DNA of 32,000 nt from Psychrobacter sp. HD31 (GCF_051097895.1 NZ_CP142525.1:1140001-1172000); one strand, 5' to 3'. Shown: positions 496-31,290, numbered from the stretch's first letter. Translations and numbers: made by a program. Notes: a model not told the origin generated them from the sequence alone.

Positions 496-855
496 TTATT
501 TCGAGATACAACTTCCATAATACTGAGATGGGATTAGCTTACCAAATATCACAGAGTTTCGCGAATGTACTGCTTCAAGTTTTGAAGTGATTGTAGTTGT
601 CATCACATTACCAGTATCTGTTATTTCTATGAATGTTCTCGCTTCATCATTAAATATATAAGCCACTTCCTTACTCCCATTATTACCAATAATATATGCT
701 TTTCCGGAGATATCATCTAACAAGAAAGTAAGTTTGAGATCCTCTTCATCTAAAGTTTTACCATTTGAAAATGAATCAAAATTACAATCATAATTTACTG
801 TAGCAAAGACATGTGTACAGACAAAAAATAACATAATGGAAGTTAATAATTTCAT
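496..855 (-). CDS. Small secreted or periplasmic protein of unknown function (119 aa)
   Basis: An AAGGAG Shine-Dalgarno sits 7 nt upstream of the ATG (reverse complement cttAAGGAGtcagtaATG). The N-terminus MKLLTSIMLFFVCTHVFA/TV looks like a signal peptide. I recognise no family motif. Confidence 0.7.
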   Translation of the reverse strand: MKLLTSIMLFFVCTHVFATVNYDCNFDSFSNGKTLDEEDLKLTFLLDDISGKAYIIGNNGSKEVAYIFNDEARTFIEITDTGNVMTTTITSKLEAVHSRNSVIFGKLIPSQYYGSCISK

Positions 856-954
856 TACTGACTCCTTAAGTAAACAAGTAAAAAGATTGATATCGAATTA
901 TAATTCAACACTTACAATACTACCATCTAATCTACAACAAACTCCAAACCAACC

Positions 955-990
955 AATAAAAAACCGCCCCACTCAGTGAGCGGGGCGGTT
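955..990 (-). terminator. Rho-independent terminator of rrn operon 1
   Basis: The minus strand reads CCGCCCCGCTCACTGAGTGGGGCGG followed by TTTTTTATT, directly downstream of the 5S gene. Confidence 0.85.
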
Positions 991-1020
991 TTGGAGTAAC
1001 CGGTTGGGTTACGAATAAGG

Positions 1021-1134
1021 AGCTGACGATGACCTACTCTCACATGGGCGAACCACACTACCATTGGCGCGAAGACGTTTCACTTCTGAGTTCGGGAAGG
1101 GATCAGGTGGTTCCATCTTGCTATTATCGTCAGC
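1021..1134 (-). rRNA. rrf: 5S rRNA (operon 1)
   Basis: The reverse complement contains CCACCTGATCCCTTCCCGAACTCAGAAGTGAAACG and GGTAGTGTGG...GAGAGTAGG. The terminal helix pairs gctgacgat with atcgtcagc. Confidence 0.92.
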
Positions 1135-1279
1135 GAAGGGGTTTTAACAACAGCAACCGACTAGGTTGCTAGTAGAAATGAGTTTTATATATGTCTTTCG
1201 ACTTTCAAGATTATTATCTGATATCAAGCTTATGATGATATCGAAATTATATTAACTATATAAACCATTTTGGTATTGT

Positions 1280-4133
<2,854 letters not shown>

Positions 4134-4343
4134 CAATCCAAAATAGTTTGCAATGTATAGGTAATTTAATTAACGATATCACCATTTGTGTTGTTATCTA
4201 TCTTCCAATAAATAACGCGCTTGATTCAGTTCTCTTTACTTTTCGATAGTTAACGGTGGGATAACATTACAATGTCATTCCGTTAACTATCAGGTTAAAC
4301 ACATTCTTGTTGGAACAGTGTGTTTAACCCAGACTCATTTCTA

Positions 4344-4357
4344 TGTTGTTAAATAGT
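4344..4357 (-). promoter_or_regulatory. boxA-like antitermination motif in the tRNA-Ala to 23S spacer (operon 1)
   Basis: The minus strand reads CTATTTAACAAC and contains the TTTAACAA core of the E. coli rrn boxA (GCTCTTTAACAA). Confidence 0.4.
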
Positions 4358-4443
4358 TTATGATGCTCTCTTCAAGTCATCATGTTCTTTCTGCTTTCAC
4401 AGATATAAATAATCTTCCCAAATTACTTATATCTGTAAATTAA

Positions 4444-4519
4444 TGGTGGAGCCAAGGAGAGTCGAACTCCTGACCTCCTGCGTGCAAGGCAGGCGCTCTA
4501 CCAACTGAGCTATGGCCCC
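4444..4519 (-). tRNA. tRNA-Ala (anticodon UGC)
   Basis: The reverse complement is GGGGCCATAGCTCAGTTGGTAGAGCGCCTGCCTTGCACGCAGGAGGTCAGGAGTTCGACTCTCCTTGGCTCCACCA. It is cloverleaf-compatible and has an encoded CCA. Confidence 0.97.
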
Positions 4520-4520
4520 A

Positions 4521-4597
4521 TGGTGGGTCTAATAAGACTTGAACTTATGACCCCCGCGTTATCAACACGGTGCTCTAACCAGCTGAGCTATAGACCC
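4521..4597 (-). tRNA. tRNA-Ile (anticodon GAU)
   Basis: The reverse complement is GGGTCTATAGCTCAGCTGGTTAGAGCACCGTGTTGATAACGCGGGGGTCATAAGTTCAAGTCTTATTAGACCCACCA. Confidence 0.97.
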
Positions 4598-4657
4598 TTA
4601 TAGCTTACTTCTTAAAAAACAACTTGTTGTGAATTCTTGCCAATTGAATGCTTTCGT

Positions 4658-6192
<1,535 letters not shown>

Positions 6193-6459
6193 ATCTTTGT
6201 TGAGACCTTTTAAGATGGTCCCTAATCTTGGCTCATTCGTACTTTACTAGCATATTTACTTAAGTATGTTCGTATATGAATTAACTTTGGTATTTCTACT
6301 AATTTCGTCGAATGATTATCTTTTTAAAGTCATTCTAAATTAGCAAAAATCCACACAAGTTGTTTTTTAAGTTTGTTTTTAATGAGTTAGATTACCTTCG
6401 TCAGGTTAATCTTTACCCCCTTTGTCTTCAACGTATGCTGTGCGACTCAGGGAAGGCAT

Positions 6460-6487
6460 ATTATATAGTGTTTATCTCTCGTGTCAA
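6460..6487 (-). promoter_or_regulatory. rrn operon 1 promoter P2 (proximal)
   Basis: The minus strand reads TTGACA, a 16-nt spacer, then TATAAT. An A/T-rich UP-like tract (aaaaaactttaaaaaggcgtaaaaaagtg) lies upstream and a G/C-containing discriminator (atgccttccc) lies downstream. Confidence 0.7.
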
Positions 6488-6614
6488 CACTTTTTTACGC
6501 CTTTTTAAAGTTTTTTCGCTTCGCTTTTCTTTGTTTTAAGCTTAACTCAATTTCACTTTAATTTACGCTACAAAACTTCGCTTTGTCAGCTCTGCCCCGT
6601 TTGCGTGAGGGCGT

Positions 6615-6642
6615 ATTATACGCAGTTTTTTTAGGTTGGCAA
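6615..6642 (-). promoter_or_regulatory. rrn operon 1 promoter P1 (distal)
   Basis: The minus strand reads TTGCCA, a 16-nt spacer, then TATAAT, followed by the GC-rich discriminator acgccctcacgc. This is typical of stringently controlled rrn promoters. Confidence 0.7.
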
Positions 6643-6888
6643 GGGGTTTTTAAAGATTTGTGAAATTTGTTTGTAAGGGGCTGGTTTGAAAGGGGGTTTT
6701 GATGGAAGTTTGTTTGCTAGCCAATGGGTGGTTATTTGACTTTATATATGTGTCTTTAGTTTCCAACCTTTATTATTTATTTTTTCTTCCTACTATAAAT
6801 GTTTTCGACTTCTAATGTAGAAATTTAACGCCCTCACTTACAGCTGGTTTATTGCGCAGCAGAATATCAGTCCTACAACATTCACTTG

Positions 6889-8133
6889 TTAGCTCTCACT
6901 CTCCGTTTCAATCATATTTTTCAAATCAGAGAAAGCCCTATTTTGCTGATTAAGATTGCTCTTAAAGTCTATTGCTTTAACGGAACGCTCATGTCCCTCA
7001 CCATGATGCTCGTATATTTCCAAATAGCCCTCTTGCTCTAACTGATCGATGAGATCATAGCTTGACTTGAAATCATAACCCATGGGCCCTAGATAATTGA
7101 CGACAAATGACTTAAGACCCATAAATTCGTATCCGTTTTCATCCGTAAATCTTTTGCTAGCCCTAAGTTTAGATAGCATCTCTGACTTTGAAATTGCTTT
7201 CAGAGAAGACTCACTTGCAATTACATCTCTTATTGCATCTCTGTCATCAGACGAAAATTGAACTGCAGCAATTTTCTCTTCAGCATCTTTAATTATTTTT
7301 TCAAGATCTTCTGTTAGCTCTTTTGCAGTAATTCGATCTTTTTCAACAAAAAGGCTGTTATGAGCTACCTTATGTCTAATTTTCTCTAACTGCTCCCATT
7401 TTTGCTGGAAGTTCTGATCTTTAAACGACTCTTTAAAAAATTTATTGTAGTTAGATTGAAGTTCAATTTTTAAGGCAGCGATTGCTTCTTGAGTTTCCTC
7501 CATTTCCATGACCTTGGTATAGATGTCATCTCTTGAAATAAAACCAGAAGATTGAGAGTAGACGATTTTACCTAACTCTCCAAAATCGATTAAGTAAGCC
7601 TTACTATCAGCTTTAGATGAAAAATTTGTCTCGTTATTCTTCCTGTTAATAACTTTCTTTTTCATTTCTGAATCAGCTGTCAAAGACCACCAGTTCGGAC
7701 CAAGTTTTGTTACAAGAAACTTAATTAGATATCTGCGCAAGGAATTTTCAACTTTATTGATTTCAGGGTAAATATCATTCGCAATATTCGAAGACGCTTC
7801 ATCCGTAAGCACATATATGTGCTCAAACTTTAGCTCCTTAAGATGCGATAAGATTTTTAATCTAAAGGGCTCTAGAAACTGTAATTGTGCAGATATTCTA
7901 ACAATGAATCCTGTCCCTATTTGATCTTTAACTTCATCATCTGGATCGACCTTTGCTATTTGGATATTTAGACCTTGGTCTCGATCTTCAATTTGAGTAT
8001 TATCATGCTTGAGTCTTGGATTCTCAAACAAAGAGGAATTCGACATTAAGGCGTAACAAAGCTCTTGTTCTGCTTTGACAACACACTTTCCTATATTATC
8101 TACGCAAAGTAGTTCATATTCCAATTTGCTCAA
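6889..8133 (-). CDS. HEPN-domain protein (414 aa): unknown N-terminal domain, central Swt1-like HEPN with an Rx4H motif, and a possible winged-helix C-terminal domain
   Basis: This is a long clean ORF in an otherwise non-coding spacer. R253-H-K-V-A-H258 (nt 7360-7377) fits the HEPN Rx4-6H catalytic motif. Upstream helices read VENSLRRYLIKFLVTKLGPNWW and YLIDFGELGKIVY, the pattern I associate with Swt1-like HEPN domains. The C-terminal segment FMGLKSFVVNYLGPMGYDFKSSYDLIDQLEQEGYLEIY looks like a winged helix-turn-helix, which is an inference. Confidence 0.8.
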   Translation of the reverse strand: MSKLEYELLCVDNIGKCVVKAEQELCYALMSNSSLFENPRLKHDNTQIEDRDQGLNIQIAKVDPDDEVKDQIGTGFIVRISAQLQFLEPFRLKILSHLKELKFEHIYVLTDEASSNIANDIYPEINKVENSLRRYLIKFLVTKLGPNWWSLTADSEMKKKVINRKNNETNFSSKADSKAYLIDFGELGKIVYSQSSGFISRDDIYTKVMEMEETQEAIAALKIELQSNYNKFFKESFKDQNFQQKWEQLEKIRHKVAHNSLFVEKDRITAKELTEDLEKIIKDAEEKIAAVQFSSDDRDAIRDVIASESSLKAISKSEMLSKLRASKRFTDENGYEFMGLKSFVVNYLGPMGYDFKSSYDLIDQLEQEGYLEIYEHHGEGHERSVKAIDFKSNLNQQNRAFSDLKNMIETESES

Positions 8134-8179
8134 TTTTATTTCCTATTTTTTGATTATTTCTTAATAGCACTAACAATTT

Positions 8180-8209
8180 ATTATCTTGCTATCCTAGCAT
8201 TGATGTCAA
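8180..8209 (-). promoter_or_regulatory. Candidate sigma70 promoter for the 414-aa HEPN gene
   Basis: The minus strand reads TTGACA (8209-8204), an 18-nt spacer, then GATAAT (8185-8180), about 45 nt upstream of the ATG at 8133. The spacing is suboptimal. Confidence 0.35.
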
Positions 8210-8268
8210 TCACTGACAATATATAAACTCAGTAGGTTGGTATCGAGGAGTCGAGAACCAACACCCCA

Positions 8269-8296
8269 GTGTCAACACTTTTTTACGCCTTTTTTT
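8269..8296 (-). repeat. Third copy of the rrn P2 UP-element and -35 segment, lacking the -10
   Basis: The 26-bp string 'gtgtcaacacttttttacgccttttt' also occurs at 6481-6506 and 13885-13910, within the P2 promoters. Here the flanks on both sides are unrelated, and no -10 hexamer follows the TTGACA. Confidence 0.85.
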
Positions 8297-8360
8297 ATAT
8301 AATATTCATTATAGATAGAATAATACTACCATCTAATCTACAACAAACTCCAAACCAACC

Positions 8361-8396
8361 AATAAAAAACCGCCCCACTCAGTGAGCGGGGCGGTT
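8361..8396 (-). terminator. Rho-independent terminator of rrn operon 2
   Basis: It is identical to the hairpin and T-tract at 955-990. It lies between the operon-2 5S gene and the HEPN gene. Confidence 0.85.
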
Positions 8397-8426
8397 TTGG
8401 AGTAACCGGTTGGGTTACGAATAAGG

Positions 8427-8540
8427 AGCTGACGATGACCTACTCTCACATGGGCGAACCACACTACCATTGGCGCGAAGACGTTTCACTTCTGAGTTCG
8501 GGAAGGGATCAGGTGGTTCCATCTTGCTATTATCGTCAGC
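8427..8540 (-). rRNA. rrf: 5S rRNA (operon 2)
   Basis: It is identical to 1021-1134 at offset 7406. Confidence 0.92.
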
Positions 8541-8685
8541 GAAGGGGTTTTAACAACAGCAACCGACTAGGTTGCTAGTAGAAATGAGTTTTATATATGT
8601 CTTTCGACTTTCAAGATTATTATCTGATATCAAGCTTATGATGATATCGAAATTATATTAACTATATAAACCATTTTGGTATTGT

Positions 8686-11539
<2,854 letters not shown>

Positions 11540-11749
11540 CAATCCAAAATAGTTTGCAATGTATAGGTAATTTAATTAACGATATCACCATTTGTGTTGT
11601 TATCTATCTTCCAATAAATAACGCGCTTGATTCAGTTCTCTTTACTTTTCGATAGTTAACGGTGGGATAACATTACAATGTCATTCCGTTAACTATCAGG
11701 TTAAACACATTCTTGTTGGAACAGTGTGTTTAACCCAGACTCATTTCTA

Positions 11750-11763
11750 TGTTGTTAAATAGT
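11750..11763 (-). promoter_or_regulatory. boxA-like antitermination motif in the spacer (operon 2)
   Basis: The sequence is the same as at 4344-4357. Confidence 0.4.
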
Positions 11764-11848
11764 TTATGATGCTCTCTTCAAGTCATCATGTTCTTCTGCT
11801 TTCACAGATATAAATAATCTTCCCAAATTACTTATATCTGTAAATTAA

Positions 11849-11924
11849 TGGTGGAGCCAAGGAGAGTCGAACTCCTGACCTCCTGCGTGCAAGGCAGGCG
11901 CTCTACCAACTGAGCTATGGCCCC
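11849..11924 (-). tRNA. tRNA-Ala (anticodon UGC)
   Basis: It is identical to 4444-4519. Confidence 0.97.
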
Positions 11925-11925
11925 A

Positions 11926-12002
11926 TGGTGGGTCTAATAAGACTTGAACTTATGACCCCCGCGTTATCAACACGGTGCTCTAACCAGCTGAGCTATAGAC
12001 CC
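11926..12002 (-). tRNA. tRNA-Ile (anticodon GAU)
   Basis: It is identical to 4521-4597. Confidence 0.97.
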
Positions 12003-12062
12003 TTATAGCTTACTTCTTAAAAAACAACTTGTTGTGAATTCTTGCCAATTGAATGCTTTCGT

Positions 12063-13595
<1,533 letters not shown>

Positions 13596-13863
13596 ATCTT
13601 TGTTGAGACCTTTTAAGATGGTCCCTAATCTTGGCTCATTCGTACTTTACTAGCATATTTACTTAAGTATGTTCGTATATGAATTAACTTTGAGTATTTC
13701 TACTAATTTCGTCGAATGATTATCTTTTTAAAGTCATTCTAAATTAGCAAAAATCCACACAAGTTGTTTTTTAAGTTTGTTTTTAATGAGTTAGATTACC
13801 TTCGTCAGGTTAATCTTTACCCCCTTTGTCTTCAACGTATGCTGTGCGACTCAGGGAAGGCAT

Positions 13864-13891
13864 ATTATATAGTGTTTATCTCTCGTGTCAA
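13864..13891 (-). promoter_or_regulatory. rrn operon 2 promoter P2
   Basis: It has the same TTGACA-16-TATAAT arrangement as 6460-6487. Confidence 0.7.
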
Positions 13892-14018
13892 CACTTTTTT
13901 ACGCCTTTTTAAAGTTTTTTCGCTTCGCTTTTCTTTGTTTTAAGCTTAACTCAATTTCACTTTAATTTACGCTACAAAACTTCGCTTTGTCAGCTCTGCC
14001 CCGTTTGCGTGAGGGCGT

Positions 14019-14046
14019 ATTATACGCAGTTTTTTTAGGTTGGCAA
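14019..14046 (-). promoter_or_regulatory. rrn operon 2 promoter P1
   Basis: It has the same TTGCCA-16-TATAAT arrangement as 6615-6642. Confidence 0.7.
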
Positions 14047-14295
14047 GGGGTTTTTTAAAGATTTGTGAAATTTGCTTGTAAGGGGCTGGTTTGAAAGGGG
14101 TTTTAGAATACTCTTAAGTAGTCTCTTTAAGCAACCTCCCTCTGTAATGCTTTGCATTCGATTTTGGTATCTGTCTATATATAAACATGCACATTATCTT
14201 ATAATGTTTATGTATGGTATTTTATACCAACCGACTATCTCCATAAGTAGATAGTACATAATATAGCAAAATATAAACATAGCTAGGAGATTAAT

Positions 14296-14655
14296 ATGTT
14301 TTTTGTTGAAATTGATGATGACGGATTAACCGTTGACGATATTAAAAGAATTGCCAATCATTTAATTGATGATCATAACGATTTATTACAGCAATTGAGT
14401 CAAAAGCAGCTAGATGACTTATCATTAATAACAAAACCAACACTGGAGAGTGATTATAGTGAAGTCGAAATCAAAAAACATTGGGATGAGTTTATTAAAG
14501 ATTTTGTTGTAAAAGATGTTAATGGTAATTCAATGCGTTTTTATAAAGGCTCAGATGGTTGTTTTTATTTTGGTGATGAACGTGGAATGGAAATGGCTTT
14601 AAATCTTAGTAAAAATAGCCCTTATCCTAATAAAAACTATAGAAGTGACGATTAG
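14296..14655 (+). CDS. Small, highly acidic hypothetical protein (119 aa)
   Basis: An AGGAGA Shine-Dalgarno sits 6 nt before the ATG (agctAGGAGAttaatATG). The protein is rich in D and E. I recognise no family. Confidence 0.65.
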   Translation: MFFVEIDDDGLTVDDIKRIANHLIDDHNDLLQQLSQKQLDDLSLITKPTLESDYSEVEIKKHWDEFIKDFVVKDVNGNSMRFYKGSDGCFYFGDERGMEMALNLSKNSPYPNKNYRSDD

Positions 14656-27777: not shown

Positions 27778-30216
27778 CTAGCTATCGCGTAATACAGCTT
27801 GATGCTGACTTTCTAACGCCTGAACTACTTTATCAGTTATATTATTTACCACTTCATCAGATAAGGTTTGGTTGGTATCTTGATACACCAAAGCAAAAGC
27901 TAATGAACGTTGACCTTGTGGCACATGCTCACCTTGATACACATCAAACAACCATGTATTGGCAAGCAAGTTACCAGCTGATTCACGAATCGTGGTTTGC
28001 AAGGTTTGCCATTCGATGTCTGCATCTACCAAAATAGCTAAGTCACGGCGCACTTGTGGGAACTTACTTGGTGTTGCAACTGGGTTCTTTTCACGTGCCA
28101 CTTCGGCAAGTGGGTTAGTTGCCAACTGTGCTACCCAAACGGTTTGTGCTTTTTGTAAAGGCAAATCAAGCGTTTTAGCAACACTTGGATGTAACTGCCC
28201 CAACCAGCCTATCACTTTACCATCAAGTAATAGGTTTGCACTTTGCCCTGGATGTAAAAATGCCAAGTCAGCACGTTGGTAGCTAATGCGATTAGGTGAT
28301 AACTCGGTAGGTAATAACTGCTCTACATCATGCTTTAAGTCATAAAAGTCCATTGCACGATTTTGATAGCTGCTATCTGCTTGCTCTGGCTCAACATCAC
28401 CCACGGCGACAATCGCTATACTTGGTGTTTGCACCAACTCACTTACACTGGCACCAACAAAGGTTAAGCCAGTTTCAAAAAAGCGTACACGGCTTTGCTG
28501 ACGATTTAAATTATATTGCACACAAGGCAATAAGCTAGACAGCATCGTACGGCGCATGACTGCCAAATCACTAGAAATTGGGTTAGCCAAAGGCAATACT
28601 GCACCCAATTTTTCATCATTTAAAATATTTTCTAGTTTTTCATCACTAAAACTAAAACTAACCGCTTCCATGTAACCTGCATCAACTAAATTGAGTTTCA
28701 TGCCATGCAATAAATCGGCACTGTCATCATAGTTCATGTCCGCTTCTAGTTTTGGTAGCTGGTTTTCGATATTATCATAACCATAAATACGAGCCACTTC
28801 TTCTACCAAATCTTCTGGTAAGCTCATATCAAAACGCCATGTTGGCGGCGTGCATTCAAACGCATCGCCTGTTTGCTTAACTTCGATACCAAGTTGAGTT
28901 AAGATACGGGCAATTTCATCACTGCTAATATCGGTACCCAAAACGGTATTTACTTTATCAGTAGTGATGCTTATTTGGCTAGGCTGTGGTAGTTTGTTAA
29001 TATCTTCTACCGTGGTAATTTGCCCAACTTGGGCGCCAGCAACTTCTACCAATAGCCGGGTAGCACGCTCAAGCGCAAGTTTAGGTAAGTCATAATCTAC
29101 CCCACGCTCAAAACGCTGTGAAGCGTCTGTATGTAAACCAAAACGACGGGCTTTACCCGCAATGGTGATTTGATCAAAATGGGCACTCTCTAGCACGATG
29201 TTTGTGGTAGCGTCTATTACCGCTGTGCGTGCGCCACCCATAATACCAGCTAGGGCAATCACACCCTCATCATCGGTAATAACAAGCTCATCGCCTTTTA
29301 GGGTAATCTCGTCATCATTTAGCAAGGTTAACTTTTCACCTTCTTTTGCTAAGCGAACGCTGATATCGCCCACCAACTTATCTGCATCAAAGGCGTGCAT
29401 TGGCTGACCAAGCTCCATCAATACATAGTTGGTAATATCTACTAAAAAGTTATGAGTGCGGATACCTGACTGTACCAATACATCGCTCATCCATTTTGGC
29501 GTCGCAACACTGCGGTCAATATTTAATACTGGCTGTGCTAAATAACGAGGGCAAGCATCGGCTGACTCAACTTTTACACCTTGGTTTGCATCGCTAGTGA
29601 TTGCAGGTGCTTGTATGTTTGGCGCATTCACTGGCATGTCGTTAATAACTGATATTTCACGGGTTATGCCACGCACGCTAAAGCAGTCACCACGGTTTGG
29701 CGTGATAGAAATATCCATGATTTGATTATCTAACCCTAAATATTCACGGATGTCTGTCCCTACTGGCGCATCTTCTGGTAACTCTAACAAGCCGTCAATG
29801 TCGTCTTCTAAATCAATTTCTGATGCACCGCAAAGCATGCCAAAAGACTCGATGCCACGTAGTTTGCCTTTTTTAATTTTAAAAGGCTTTAGCACACCAT
29901 CTTTGTCAGCAATAGGAGGTAGTACCGCACCAATGGTTGCCAATGGCGCTTTTAAACCCACACGCACGTTTGGCGCACCGCAAACAATTTGTACTGGTTC
30001 TGCTTGCCCAATGTTTACTTTGGTTACACGCAGTTTGTCCGCATCTGGGTGTTGCTCTACTTCTACAACCTCACCAACCACAACGCCTGTAAAAGGCTTG
30101 GCTACGCTAAATTTGTCGTCTAACTCTAGCCCTGCCATGGTTAGCTGCTCTGCCAACCCATCGCTGTCCACGCTTGGGTTAACCCACTCACGTAACCAAT
30201 TTTCACTTATTTTCAT
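27778..30216 (-). CDS. pheT: Phenylalanine--tRNA ligase beta subunit
   Basis: It is 812 aa, with the N-terminal MKISENWLREWV, the tRNA-binding, B3/4 and B5 domains, and a typical C-terminal anticodon-binding segment. Confidence 0.96.
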   Translation of the reverse strand: MKISENWLREWVNPSVDSDGLAEQLTMAGLELDDKFSVAKPFTGVVVGEVVEVEQHPDADKLRVTKVNIGQAEPVQIVCGAPNVRVGLKAPLATIGAVLPPIADKDGVLKPFKIKKGKLRGIESFGMLCGASEIDLEDDIDGLLELPEDAPVGTDIREYLGLDNQIMDISITPNRGDCFSVRGITREISVINDMPVNAPNIQAPAITSDANQGVKVESADACPRYLAQPVLNIDRSVATPKWMSDVLVQSGIRTHNFLVDITNYVLMELGQPMHAFDADKLVGDISVRLAKEGEKLTLLNDDEITLKGDELVITDDEGVIALAGIMGGARTAVIDATTNIVLESAHFDQITIAGKARRFGLHTDASQRFERGVDYDLPKLALERATRLLVEVAGAQVGQITTVEDINKLPQPSQISITTDKVNTVLGTDISSDEIARILTQLGIEVKQTGDAFECTPPTWRFDMSLPEDLVEEVARIYGYDNIENQLPKLEADMNYDDSADLLHGMKLNLVDAGYMEAVSFSFSDEKLENILNDEKLGAVLPLANPISSDLAVMRRTMLSSLLPCVQYNLNRQQSRVRFFETGLTFVGASVSELVQTPSIAIVAVGDVEPEQADSSYQNRAMDFYDLKHDVEQLLPTELSPNRISYQRADLAFLHPGQSANLLLDGKVIGWLGQLHPSVAKTLDLPLQKAQTVWVAQLATNPLAEVAREKNPVATPSKFPQVRRDLAILVDADIEWQTLQTTIRESAGNLLANTWLFDVYQGEHVPQGQRSLAFALVYQDTNQTLSDEVVNNITDKVVQALESQHQAVLRDS

Positions 30217-30289: not shown

Positions 30290-30895
30290 TTAATCTGTTC
30301 TTAACCAACCTTGTTCTACCGCATAATTAATACTATTTATAAACCATGCATAAACCTCTAAGTTCTCATGCTCTATAAATGCATGCATTTTTAATACTTG
30401 GTCTTTATGGATATTCATATCCTTCCAAGCTTGACCTTCACTTGTCATGTTATGCAAAAAGGGCAAAAGTCTGTCCACTACCTTTAATAGTTTGGTTTCT
30501 TTACTTGTCCCAAATTCTTGCTCGTCCCATAAACTTAGTAAATTACTAATATTGTTGCCTTTATGGTTAGCTAAATTTTCAATACTTTCTCTTTCGGCAA
30601 TGTGAGCATTGCTACGATTTTCACTATATAAAAACGTATCCCCTGCTTCCATTTCGCCAAGGTCGTGCACCAATGCTAATTGGATTATTTTGCCAATGTC
30701 ATAATCCTGACCATCTTGTTTATTAAACATTTCTGCAAACGCCCAACACGCCATTGCCAAATGCCAAGAATGCTCAGCCGAATTTTCTACTCGCTTTCCA
30801 CCATTAATGTAAGTTTTACGATTAACCGACTTTAACTCATCAAGTTTAAATAAGAACTCATTTATCTCGGTTAAGCGTTGCGAATTTTTTAACAT
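30290..30895 (-). CDS. HD-domain phosphohydrolase (HD_3, YfbR/HDDC2-like; possible 5'-deoxynucleotidase)
   Basis: The H...HD...D signature is present: NSAEHSWHLAMACW and LALVHDLGEMEAGD. The gene looks AT-rich compared with pheT. Confidence 0.75.
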   Translation of the reverse strand: MLKNSQRLTEINEFLFKLDELKSVNRKTYINGGKRVENSAEHSWHLAMACWAFAEMFNKQDGQDYDIGKIIQLALVHDLGEMEAGDTFLYSENRSNAHIAERESIENLANHKGNNISNLLSLWDEQEFGTSKETKLLKVVDRLLPFLHNMTSEGQAWKDMNIHKDQVLKMHAFIEHENLEVYAWFINSINYAVEQGWLRTD

Positions 30896-30954
30896 AAACT
30901 TTACGATTTTTGCTCTTTAATTGATATTTGTAATATCTTTTACCGATACAATTA

Positions 30955-31290
30955 TCAAAATTTATCTTTAATAAAAACAAAAATCGACAACCCTGCCAAA
31001 ATAATACCCCAATGTTCCATTGGTATAAAAAATAACGAGTGTTTATCTTTCATGATAACTTCTTGACCAGTTTCTTTATCAATAAAAACCTTTGCTTTAC
31101 GAGTATTTAGCCAATTTCCTAAAAAGCCTGATATTAAGCCTGCAAGTAATAAAGCAATTGCTAATGGTGCTGAATTTTCTTGGTAATAGGTTTCACTACC
31201 CATCATTTTCTCACTGAACCACTCTAAAAGAAAAGAACACCCAAAAGTAATAACAGCGACTAAAAAGCCCCAACCGTTCCAAATAATCAT
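30955..31290 (-). CDS. Small hypothetical membrane protein (111 aa, about three transmembrane segments)
   Basis: It has hydrophobic segments GWGFLVAVITFGCSFLL, LAIALLLAGLISGFLG and GIILAGLSIFVFI. It is co-oriented with pheS and pheT. Confidence 0.6.
   Translation of the reverse strand: MIIWNGWGFLVAVITFGCSFLLEWFSEKMMGSETYYQENSAPLAIALLLAGLISGFLGNWLNTRKAKVFIDKETGQEVIMKDKHSLFFIPMEHWGIILAGLSIFVFIKDKF

Follow-up and report, generated by a model that had tools for sequence, protein, structure and literature searches.

A probable former integron cassette for a three-domain Swt1-like HEPN protein between two rRNA operons of Psychrobacter sp. HD31

We analysed a 32,000-nt stretch of the genome of Psychrobacter sp. 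HD31 (GCF_051097895.1 NZ_CP142525.1:1140001-1172000), hereafter the window, in which a lone gene for a Swt1-like HEPN protein lies between two ribosomal RNA (rrn) operons. All coordinates are those of the window, and the genomic context of the host was searched within it. Two complete rrn operons (16S, tRNA-Ile, tRNA-Ala, 23S, 5S) were located using Rfam and ARAGORN, both on the minus strand. Operon 1 extends from 16S (4658-6191) through 5S (1021-1134), and operon 2 from 16S (12063-13594) through 5S (8427-8540). They are part of a direct repeat in which approximately 916-6700 equals 8322-14100, and a unique spacer is left at 6701-8321. A simple tandem duplication of one rrn operon was rejected as its origin, because the spacer matches neither native flank and thus is not the junction of such a duplication. 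The two 16S copies differ in length (1534 and 1532 nt) and in Rfam score (1582 and 1560 bits, respectively). The register of the repeat also varies between 7403 and 7406 nt, indicating small indels in the tandem operons despite their near-identity.

The sole substantial open reading frame (ORF) of the spacer is found at 6889-8133 on the minus strand (VH441_04930 / WP_434352571.1), and its 414-amino-acid (aa) product is annotated in the database as 'hypothetical protein'. A look-up of the exact protein sequence gave no record; the stretch was assigned to HD31 through exact matches of Rho, PheT, a sodium:solute symporter, and the two flanking hypothetical proteins. The ORF is flanked within the spacer by 188 nt on each side. 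The spacer yielded no second plausible ORF, and its 188-nt flanks contained neither a tandem repeat nor an Rfam family. An earlier description of this DNA, made without database searches (the sequence-only reading), had reported a unique spacer with this one gene and neither an antitoxin-like ORF nor a tandem-repeat RNA in its flanks, and the repeat mapping and ORF call agreed with it throughout. The start codon is TTG, which is supported because the closest homologue, 96% identical, carries ATG at the equivalent codon behind the same ribosome-binding site (RBS). The ORF is not a chance frame, because homologues covering 93-100% of its length were detected at E = 1e-256 to 1e-94. Its GC content is 35.3%, compared to 37.9% for the window outside the rRNA. 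The GC content at third codon positions (GC3) of the ORF, 32.5%, is inside the range of neighbouring genes (21-42%). The AT-richness noticed by eye in the sequence-only reading is thus marginal, and a compositional anomaly of the ORF was dropped since GC3 is within the host range.

The protein, which consists of three domains, almost certainly belongs to the Swt1-like HEPN family. It matched Pfam HEPN_Swt1 (PF18731) over aa 129-279 with 24.9 bits (E = 2.6e-5), narrowly missing the gathering score of 27.5. All 33 members of the family alignment, which come from at least six phyla, matched the same profile (best E = 1.9e-9). The predicted catalytic Rx4H motif, R253-HKVA-H258, is encoded at 7360-7377 (minus strand) and is invariant in the 33 sequences. 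The octapeptide IRHKVAHN around it is encoded at 7380-7357 (minus strand), and R253, H254, K255, A257, H258, and N259 are invariant. In the N-terminal HEPN helix (VENxLRxY), E129 and R133 are invariant and N130 is invariant or near-invariant. The sequence-only reading had assigned the protein to this family from the Rx4H motif and two helices, all of which are present as quoted, and had proposed a profile search against HEPN families and a comparison of the Rx4H residues among homologues as checks; both supported the assignment. At E ≤ 1e-3, 181 homologues were obtained, 120 of them full-length (approximately 400 aa), and a library of 1.84 billion representative proteins gave 788 matches at the same threshold. 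A sequence profile search of the PDB with the protein gave zero matches, and an ATPase domain is absent according to Pfam and NCBIfam.

An AlphaFold2 model of the protein (predicted local distance difference test score, pLDDT, 79.9) comprises three parts. The N-terminal alpha/beta domain (aa 1-111; 7801-8133, minus strand) was modelled with a pLDDT of approximately 90 and is unplaced: it had no match in Pfam, NCBIfam, PDB, or BFVD, and no sequence or structural relative was found there. Seven N-terminal residues (E7, D50, E88, R91, Y107, D111, and S114) are invariant in the family. The HEPN domain (aa 112-290; 7264-7800, minus strand) was delimited by the PF18731 match, conservation, and the helix layout of the model, which is consistent with HEPN. 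It includes an insert of approximately 75 aa between helices 2 and 3, which is conserved (LIDFGELGK, QSSGF, NYxKFF). The C-terminal module (aa 315-392; 6958-7191, minus strand) is probably a winged-helix domain. Only local Foldseek matches were obtained for it, to PadR, Pex, LmrR, RTP, and phage helix-turn-helix proteins (probability 0.9-1.0, E = 0.2-0.5), and some family members have weak Pfam matches to winged helix-turn-helix domains at the C-terminus. The three-part layout of the sequence-only reading is thus retained in outline. Its N-terminal region is still without a place among known domains, and its C-terminal winged helix is plausible from these structural matches. Mean identity to the window protein is 67% for the HEPN domain including the insert and 40-45% for the N- and C-terminal domains, the N-terminal domain being the most variable (40%). 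We infer that this fastest-evolving domain is the likeliest sensor.

Integron core sites read GTTRRRY (R', of the preceding attC) and RYYYAAC (R'', of the cassette's own attC). The ends of the spacer gene resemble such sites, and the gene is probably a former integron cassette. Its closest relative, protein P0001 on contig L042, is 96% identical in protein and 93.5% in nucleotide sequence, and the nucleotide homology is limited to 8154-6888 of the window, which corresponds to the RBS and the ORF; the flanks are unrelated. By eye, the similarity begins at GTTAG (8174-8170) and ends at GCTAAC, which overlaps the stop codon. We placed the 5' cassette boundary at GTTAGT (8169-8174, minus strand; core site G/TTRRRY), where the homology to this relative starts, and GTTAGC is also found ahead of the RBS in L042, L052, and L066. 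The ORF is bracketed by this GTTAGT (8174-8169) and GTTAAAT (6829-6823), as expected of core sites.

On the 3' side, a probable decayed attC of 71 nt (6823-6893, minus strand) was recognised by alignment with the attC of L055. The putative relic has an R'' box (GCTAAC) on the stop codon, the central CTGCTGCGCA, and an R'-like box (GTTAAAT), and its stem complementarity is gone. The relic and the L055 attC are equal in length and have GCTAACAAGTG, the central CTGCTGCGCA, and the terminal GTT..AT in common. They share a 10-mer (P of approximately 0.001 per comparison); an ungapped comparison of the two was not significant, only the 10-mer and the terminal boxes being so. A foldable attC in the window was rejected, as 6815-6900 has a minimum free energy of -3.2 kcal/mol (z = +1.9). 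The gene is therefore not a functional integron cassette as it stands. No integrase and no other attC-like hairpin was detected in the 32-kb window, so the gene lies outside a recognisable array there and would be a former cassette that has lost its mobility. The gene is also bracketed by an AT-rich inverted repeat of 13 nt (92% complementary; 6737-6749 and 8219-8231, 1469 nt apart). It probably arose by chance and could mark the ends of a larger insert.

The attC hairpin that the window lacks was found at the homologues L052, L042, L055, L021, L037, and L038. In L042 (96% identity), an imperfect hairpin (ATCTAAC...GTTAGC) precedes the ORF and a 145-nt hairpin (GCTAAC...GTTAGC) follows it. In L052 (69%), the homologue is the sole ORF between two VCR-like attC hairpins of approximately 110 nt, followed by a small cassette and an IS110 element. 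L066 (67%) has the same GTTAGC leader and the same attC start, and in L052 and L066 VCR-like attCs are present on either side or at the ends. L021, L037, and L038 (38-44%) have attC-like hairpins 3' of the stop codon. L055/56 (60%) carries a 72-nt attC, with a group II intron directly upstream and small glyoxalase and DUF1801 cassettes downstream. This intron (697-2390 of L055; RF02001/RF01998) contains a reverse transcriptase and maturase ORF. Placement upstream of a cassette is known for attC-targeting group IIC introns. Since integron cassette boundaries delimit the gene, it appears to be a single-gene unit.

Homologues are hosted by Geobacter, Bacteroidota, cyanobacteria, Saccharibacteria, Kapabacteria, Desulfobacter, Acidobacteriota, and Chloroflexia. 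When one genome was scanned for each of 185,579 species, 37 loci were identified, none with more than 50% identity and none gammaproteobacterial. Therefore, the gene is sporadic and has spread horizontally. Phage genomes contained no homologue, and plasmids contained only distant relatives of the HEPN domain. A metagenome scan with the single protein as the query detected nothing, and one with the clade alignment detected 12 loci. Database records of homologues carry the name 'Swt1 family HEPN domain-containing protein' or 'hypothetical protein', and single-gene HEPN defence cassettes of integrons have been published (10.1101/2024.07.02.601686), so the 'undescribed system' of the sequence-only reading was an overstatement. 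The family is thus represented in public databases, without a name of its own.

We clustered the neighbouring genes within 6 kb at 43 distinct loci and found no conserved partner gene. The recurrence of histidine kinases within Kapabacteria and of glutamate synthase within Microcoleus is a matter of clade-level synteny, and both were rejected as conserved partners. The gene had been described as an orphan, and its status as a stand-alone gene was corroborated by the lack of a partner at these loci and by the integron arrays, where the homologue is the only ORF between two attC sites. At two loci of Candidatus Saccharibacteria (6111-13887 of L026; 7455-13247 of L040), the gene for the homologue forms part of a type I restriction-modification (R-M) operon of the order hsdM-HEPN-hsdS...hsdR, in which stop and start codons overlap. 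Other neighbours from the defence or mobility group were mad2, type IIG R-M, NERD-UvrD, RecD-like helicases, DUF4917, FRG, SoFic, MNT-HepT, and insertion sequence transposases. The MNT (NTP_transf_2) and HepT pair lies directly downstream of homologue P0009 (5530-6191 of L067); psd and tatD border the small variable islet that contains it.

The gene is located between the terminator of operon 2 and the promoters of operon 1, as the sequence-only reading had described. The intrinsic terminator of operon 2, a 15-bp stem with a T tract, lies 3' of its 5S gene (8366-8398, minus strand), and the operon 1 promoters P1 (6642-6615) and P2 (6487-6460), also on the minus strand, follow the gene. No terminator-like site was detected between the ORF stop codon and operon 1 P1. 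A sigma-70-like promoter candidate, TTGACA-18-GATAAT (8180-8209, minus strand), was identified by consensus match only (11 of 12 positions) and ends 6 nt before the cassette boundary. From the terminator and this promoter-like site, the gene probably has its own promoter, from which it would be transcribed from beyond the cassette boundary. Further upstream, an orphan 26-nt copy of the UP/-35 segment of rrn P2 (AAAAAGGCGTAAAAAAGTGTTGACAC), with no -10 element, is present at 8269-8294 (minus strand), approximately 70 nt past the operon 2 terminator. The window contains three exact copies (0 expected), the others at 6481-6506 and 13885-13910. The orphan fragment looks like the scar of a past rearrangement of the spacer or a truncated third promoter. 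Between this fragment and the promoter-like site, in a 116-nt region that folds with z-scores of -2.3 to -2.9, is a small stable hairpin, GTTGGTtctcgactcctcgatACCAAC (8236-8262, minus strand).

The 414-codon ORF is intact and all family-invariant residues are present. In comparison with the 96% identical relative, the ratio of nonsynonymous to synonymous substitution rates (dN/dS) is 0.06 at dS = 0.30, and thus the protein has been kept by purifying selection in both lineages.

We compared the gene with known systems. Bacterial Swt1-like HEPN proteins (PF18731; the Abi2/Swt1 clade, PMC3710099) share the HEPN-core profile match, the Rx4H motif with an N-terminal acidic helix, and the association with R-M and conflict systems. 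The architectures described in bacteria join HEPN to an AAA+ ATPase (Ava_2192) or to giant helicase, transglutaminase, or restriction endonuclease proteins, from which the window protein differs in having the unplaced N-terminal domain of approximately 110 aa, the probable C-terminal winged helix, and the strongly conserved HEPN insert of approximately 75 aa. Integron HEPN cassettes, including those of sedentary chromosomal integrons (the PDB 3jrt family, PMC3710099; Taranis and Esos, 10.1101/2024.07.02.601686), are likewise lone HEPN ORFs carried as cassettes, a likeness by description. In contrast, the window copy lies outside any integron in the window, its attC is degenerate, and a sequence search linked its product to no PDB chain. 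PrrC and RloC are HEPN anticodon nucleases, and the position between hsdM and hsdS, classic for PrrC in E. coli, is shared by the two Saccharibacteria loci; however, the window protein lacks an N-terminal ABC-ATPase domain, and no R-M genes adjoin the window copy. HEPN-MNT (HepT-MntA) has the logic of a HEPN RNase toxin in common, but no MNT gene is adjacent or conserved, and the window protein is three times larger and multidomain. In PADLOC, all 33 members matched the candidate profile PDC-M34B (best E = 6.5e-14), but the match spans only the first half of the HEPN domain (aa 115-197). This is a partial match to the B profile, whereas PDC-M34 is a two-gene A+B locus; the spacer has no second gene, PDC-M34A is absent among the 25 most frequent neighbour families, and no literature on PDC-M34 was found. 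Because the defining partner or domain is absent, the gene is not HEPN-MNT, PrrC/RloC, or PDC-M34.

The reading that we favour, with moderate confidence, is that the spacer holds a fossilised integron cassette for an autonomous single-polypeptide HEPN ribonuclease, and that its position between the rrn operons is incidental. By analogy with other stand-alone HEPN proteins (AbiJ-like, PrrC-like, and integron HEPN cassettes), dimerisation of the protein would create a composite Rx4H RNase site, and the flanking domains would hold the RNase inactive until a trigger, most likely phage infection. The variable N-terminal domain would sense this trigger, with the winged helix possibly serving in nucleic-acid binding or in dimerisation. 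Once triggered, the RNase would cleave cellular or phage RNA, leading to growth arrest. The location would be an accident of horizontal acquisition in HD31, outside the mechanism. This model was drawn from HEPN biology (PMC3710099) and from work on integron defence cassettes (10.1101/2024.07.02.601686; references cited in 10.64898/2026.03.17.712381). Streamlined defence systems of the abortive-infection type, often consisting of one gene and HEPN ones included, have a documented reservoir in integron cassettes (10.1101/2024.07.02.601686; PMC3710099), and the published HEPN cassettes cause growth arrest or cell death on infection (10.1101/2024.07.02.601686). The embedding in R-M operons and the defence-gene neighbours point to defence, and we consider a function in defence or abortive infection reasonably probable.

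The same cassette context would also suit an RNase for stress or dormancy, or a selfish RNase that stabilises cassette arrays, instead of an anti-phage protein. Integron-borne HEPN proteins were proposed to be activated by stress to arrest translation (Anantharaman et al., PMC3710099), and the occurrence of homologues in integron cassettes and the MNT-HepT toxin-antitoxin pair beside one of them fit such a role. However, the defence neighbours and the R-M embedding favour defence, many such integron cassettes proved to be phage-defence genes in recent screens (10.1101/2024.07.02.601686), and classical addiction is unlikely because no antitoxin partner is conserved; we regard this role as rather unlikely. 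A non-toxic nucleic-acid-binding or regulatory protein, combining a winged helix with a binding HEPN domain, or a housekeeping RNA-processing enzyme, seems less probable still. The winged-helix-like C-terminal domain and the toleration of the protein as a lone gene suit this explanation, and non-catalytic binding is the presumed role of some HEPN domains, that of eukaryotic Swt1 among them (PMC3710099). The invariance of the catalytic R, H, and N and of the acidic residue across phyla nevertheless argues for catalysis, and a patchy distribution driven by horizontal transfer is atypical of a housekeeping enzyme. That the gene is a decaying, non-functional remnant of horizontal transfer would agree with its decayed attC and its isolation in a rearranged spacer. 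It is very improbable given an ORF intact over all 414 codons with every invariant residue, the low dN/dS, and the presence of an RBS and a promoter-like site.

The location itself raised one further explanation, put forward in the sequence-only reading, in which the RNase is coupled to rRNA synthesis. It would be expressed by read-through or supercoiling from the flanking rrn operons and would possibly be a sensor-effector that is linked to growth rate and acts on rRNA or ribosomes. In favour of this, the gene shares the orientation of both operons and is found 233 nt past the operon 2 terminator, the orphan P2 UP/-35 fragment is upstream of it, no terminator separates its stop codon from operon 1 P1, and HEPN enzymes such as Las1 process rRNA (PMC3710099). 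This coupling is highly unlikely to be real, however, as no rRNA gene was found within approximately 10 kb of the homologue at any of 68 other loci, and the 96% identical relative has unrelated flanks. Moreover, operon 2 and the gene are separated by the strong 15-bp terminator and by a distinct promoter-like site, a -10 element is missing from the orphan P2 fragment, and the family typically occurs in integron arrays, R-M operons, and variable islands. The role suggested for the rrn location was not upheld by these results. Very improbable, too, is a variant in which a domesticated cassette RNase exploits the rrn spacer, with its dosage or activity tracking rRNA transcription via read-through, supercoiling, or the orphan P2 fragment, so that a HEPN effector would be tied to ribosome synthesis or growth rate. 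More plausible than such exploitation, the whole family could act against phages as a new autonomous system of one protein, with the N-terminal domain as a sensor of a new type.

The locus thus does not reveal a new link between an RNase and rRNA operons. Read as a former cassette, it would be a clean example of escape from an integron, with the attC lost, the gene fixed in an intergenic region between rRNA operons, and its own promoter probable. It also marks out a broadly distributed, conserved three-domain HEPN family. Cassette boundaries show action as a single gene, which makes the family an easy candidate for phage-defence and toxicity screens.

Elsewhere in the window, two hypothetical genes of 119 aa each, with a very low GC content of 30-31%, flank the tandem rrn pair at 496-855 (minus strand) and 14296-14655 (plus strand). 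They were rejected as a repeat pair, as their sequences are unrelated, and the product of the gene at 496-855 has a signal-peptide-like N-terminus. Between pheT (27778-30216) and pheS (from 31424 to the end of the window), which are usually adjacent, two extra genes are present on the minus strand (30290-31290), an unplaced 111-aa ORF and a 201-aa HD-domain YfbR-like 5'-deoxynucleotidase.

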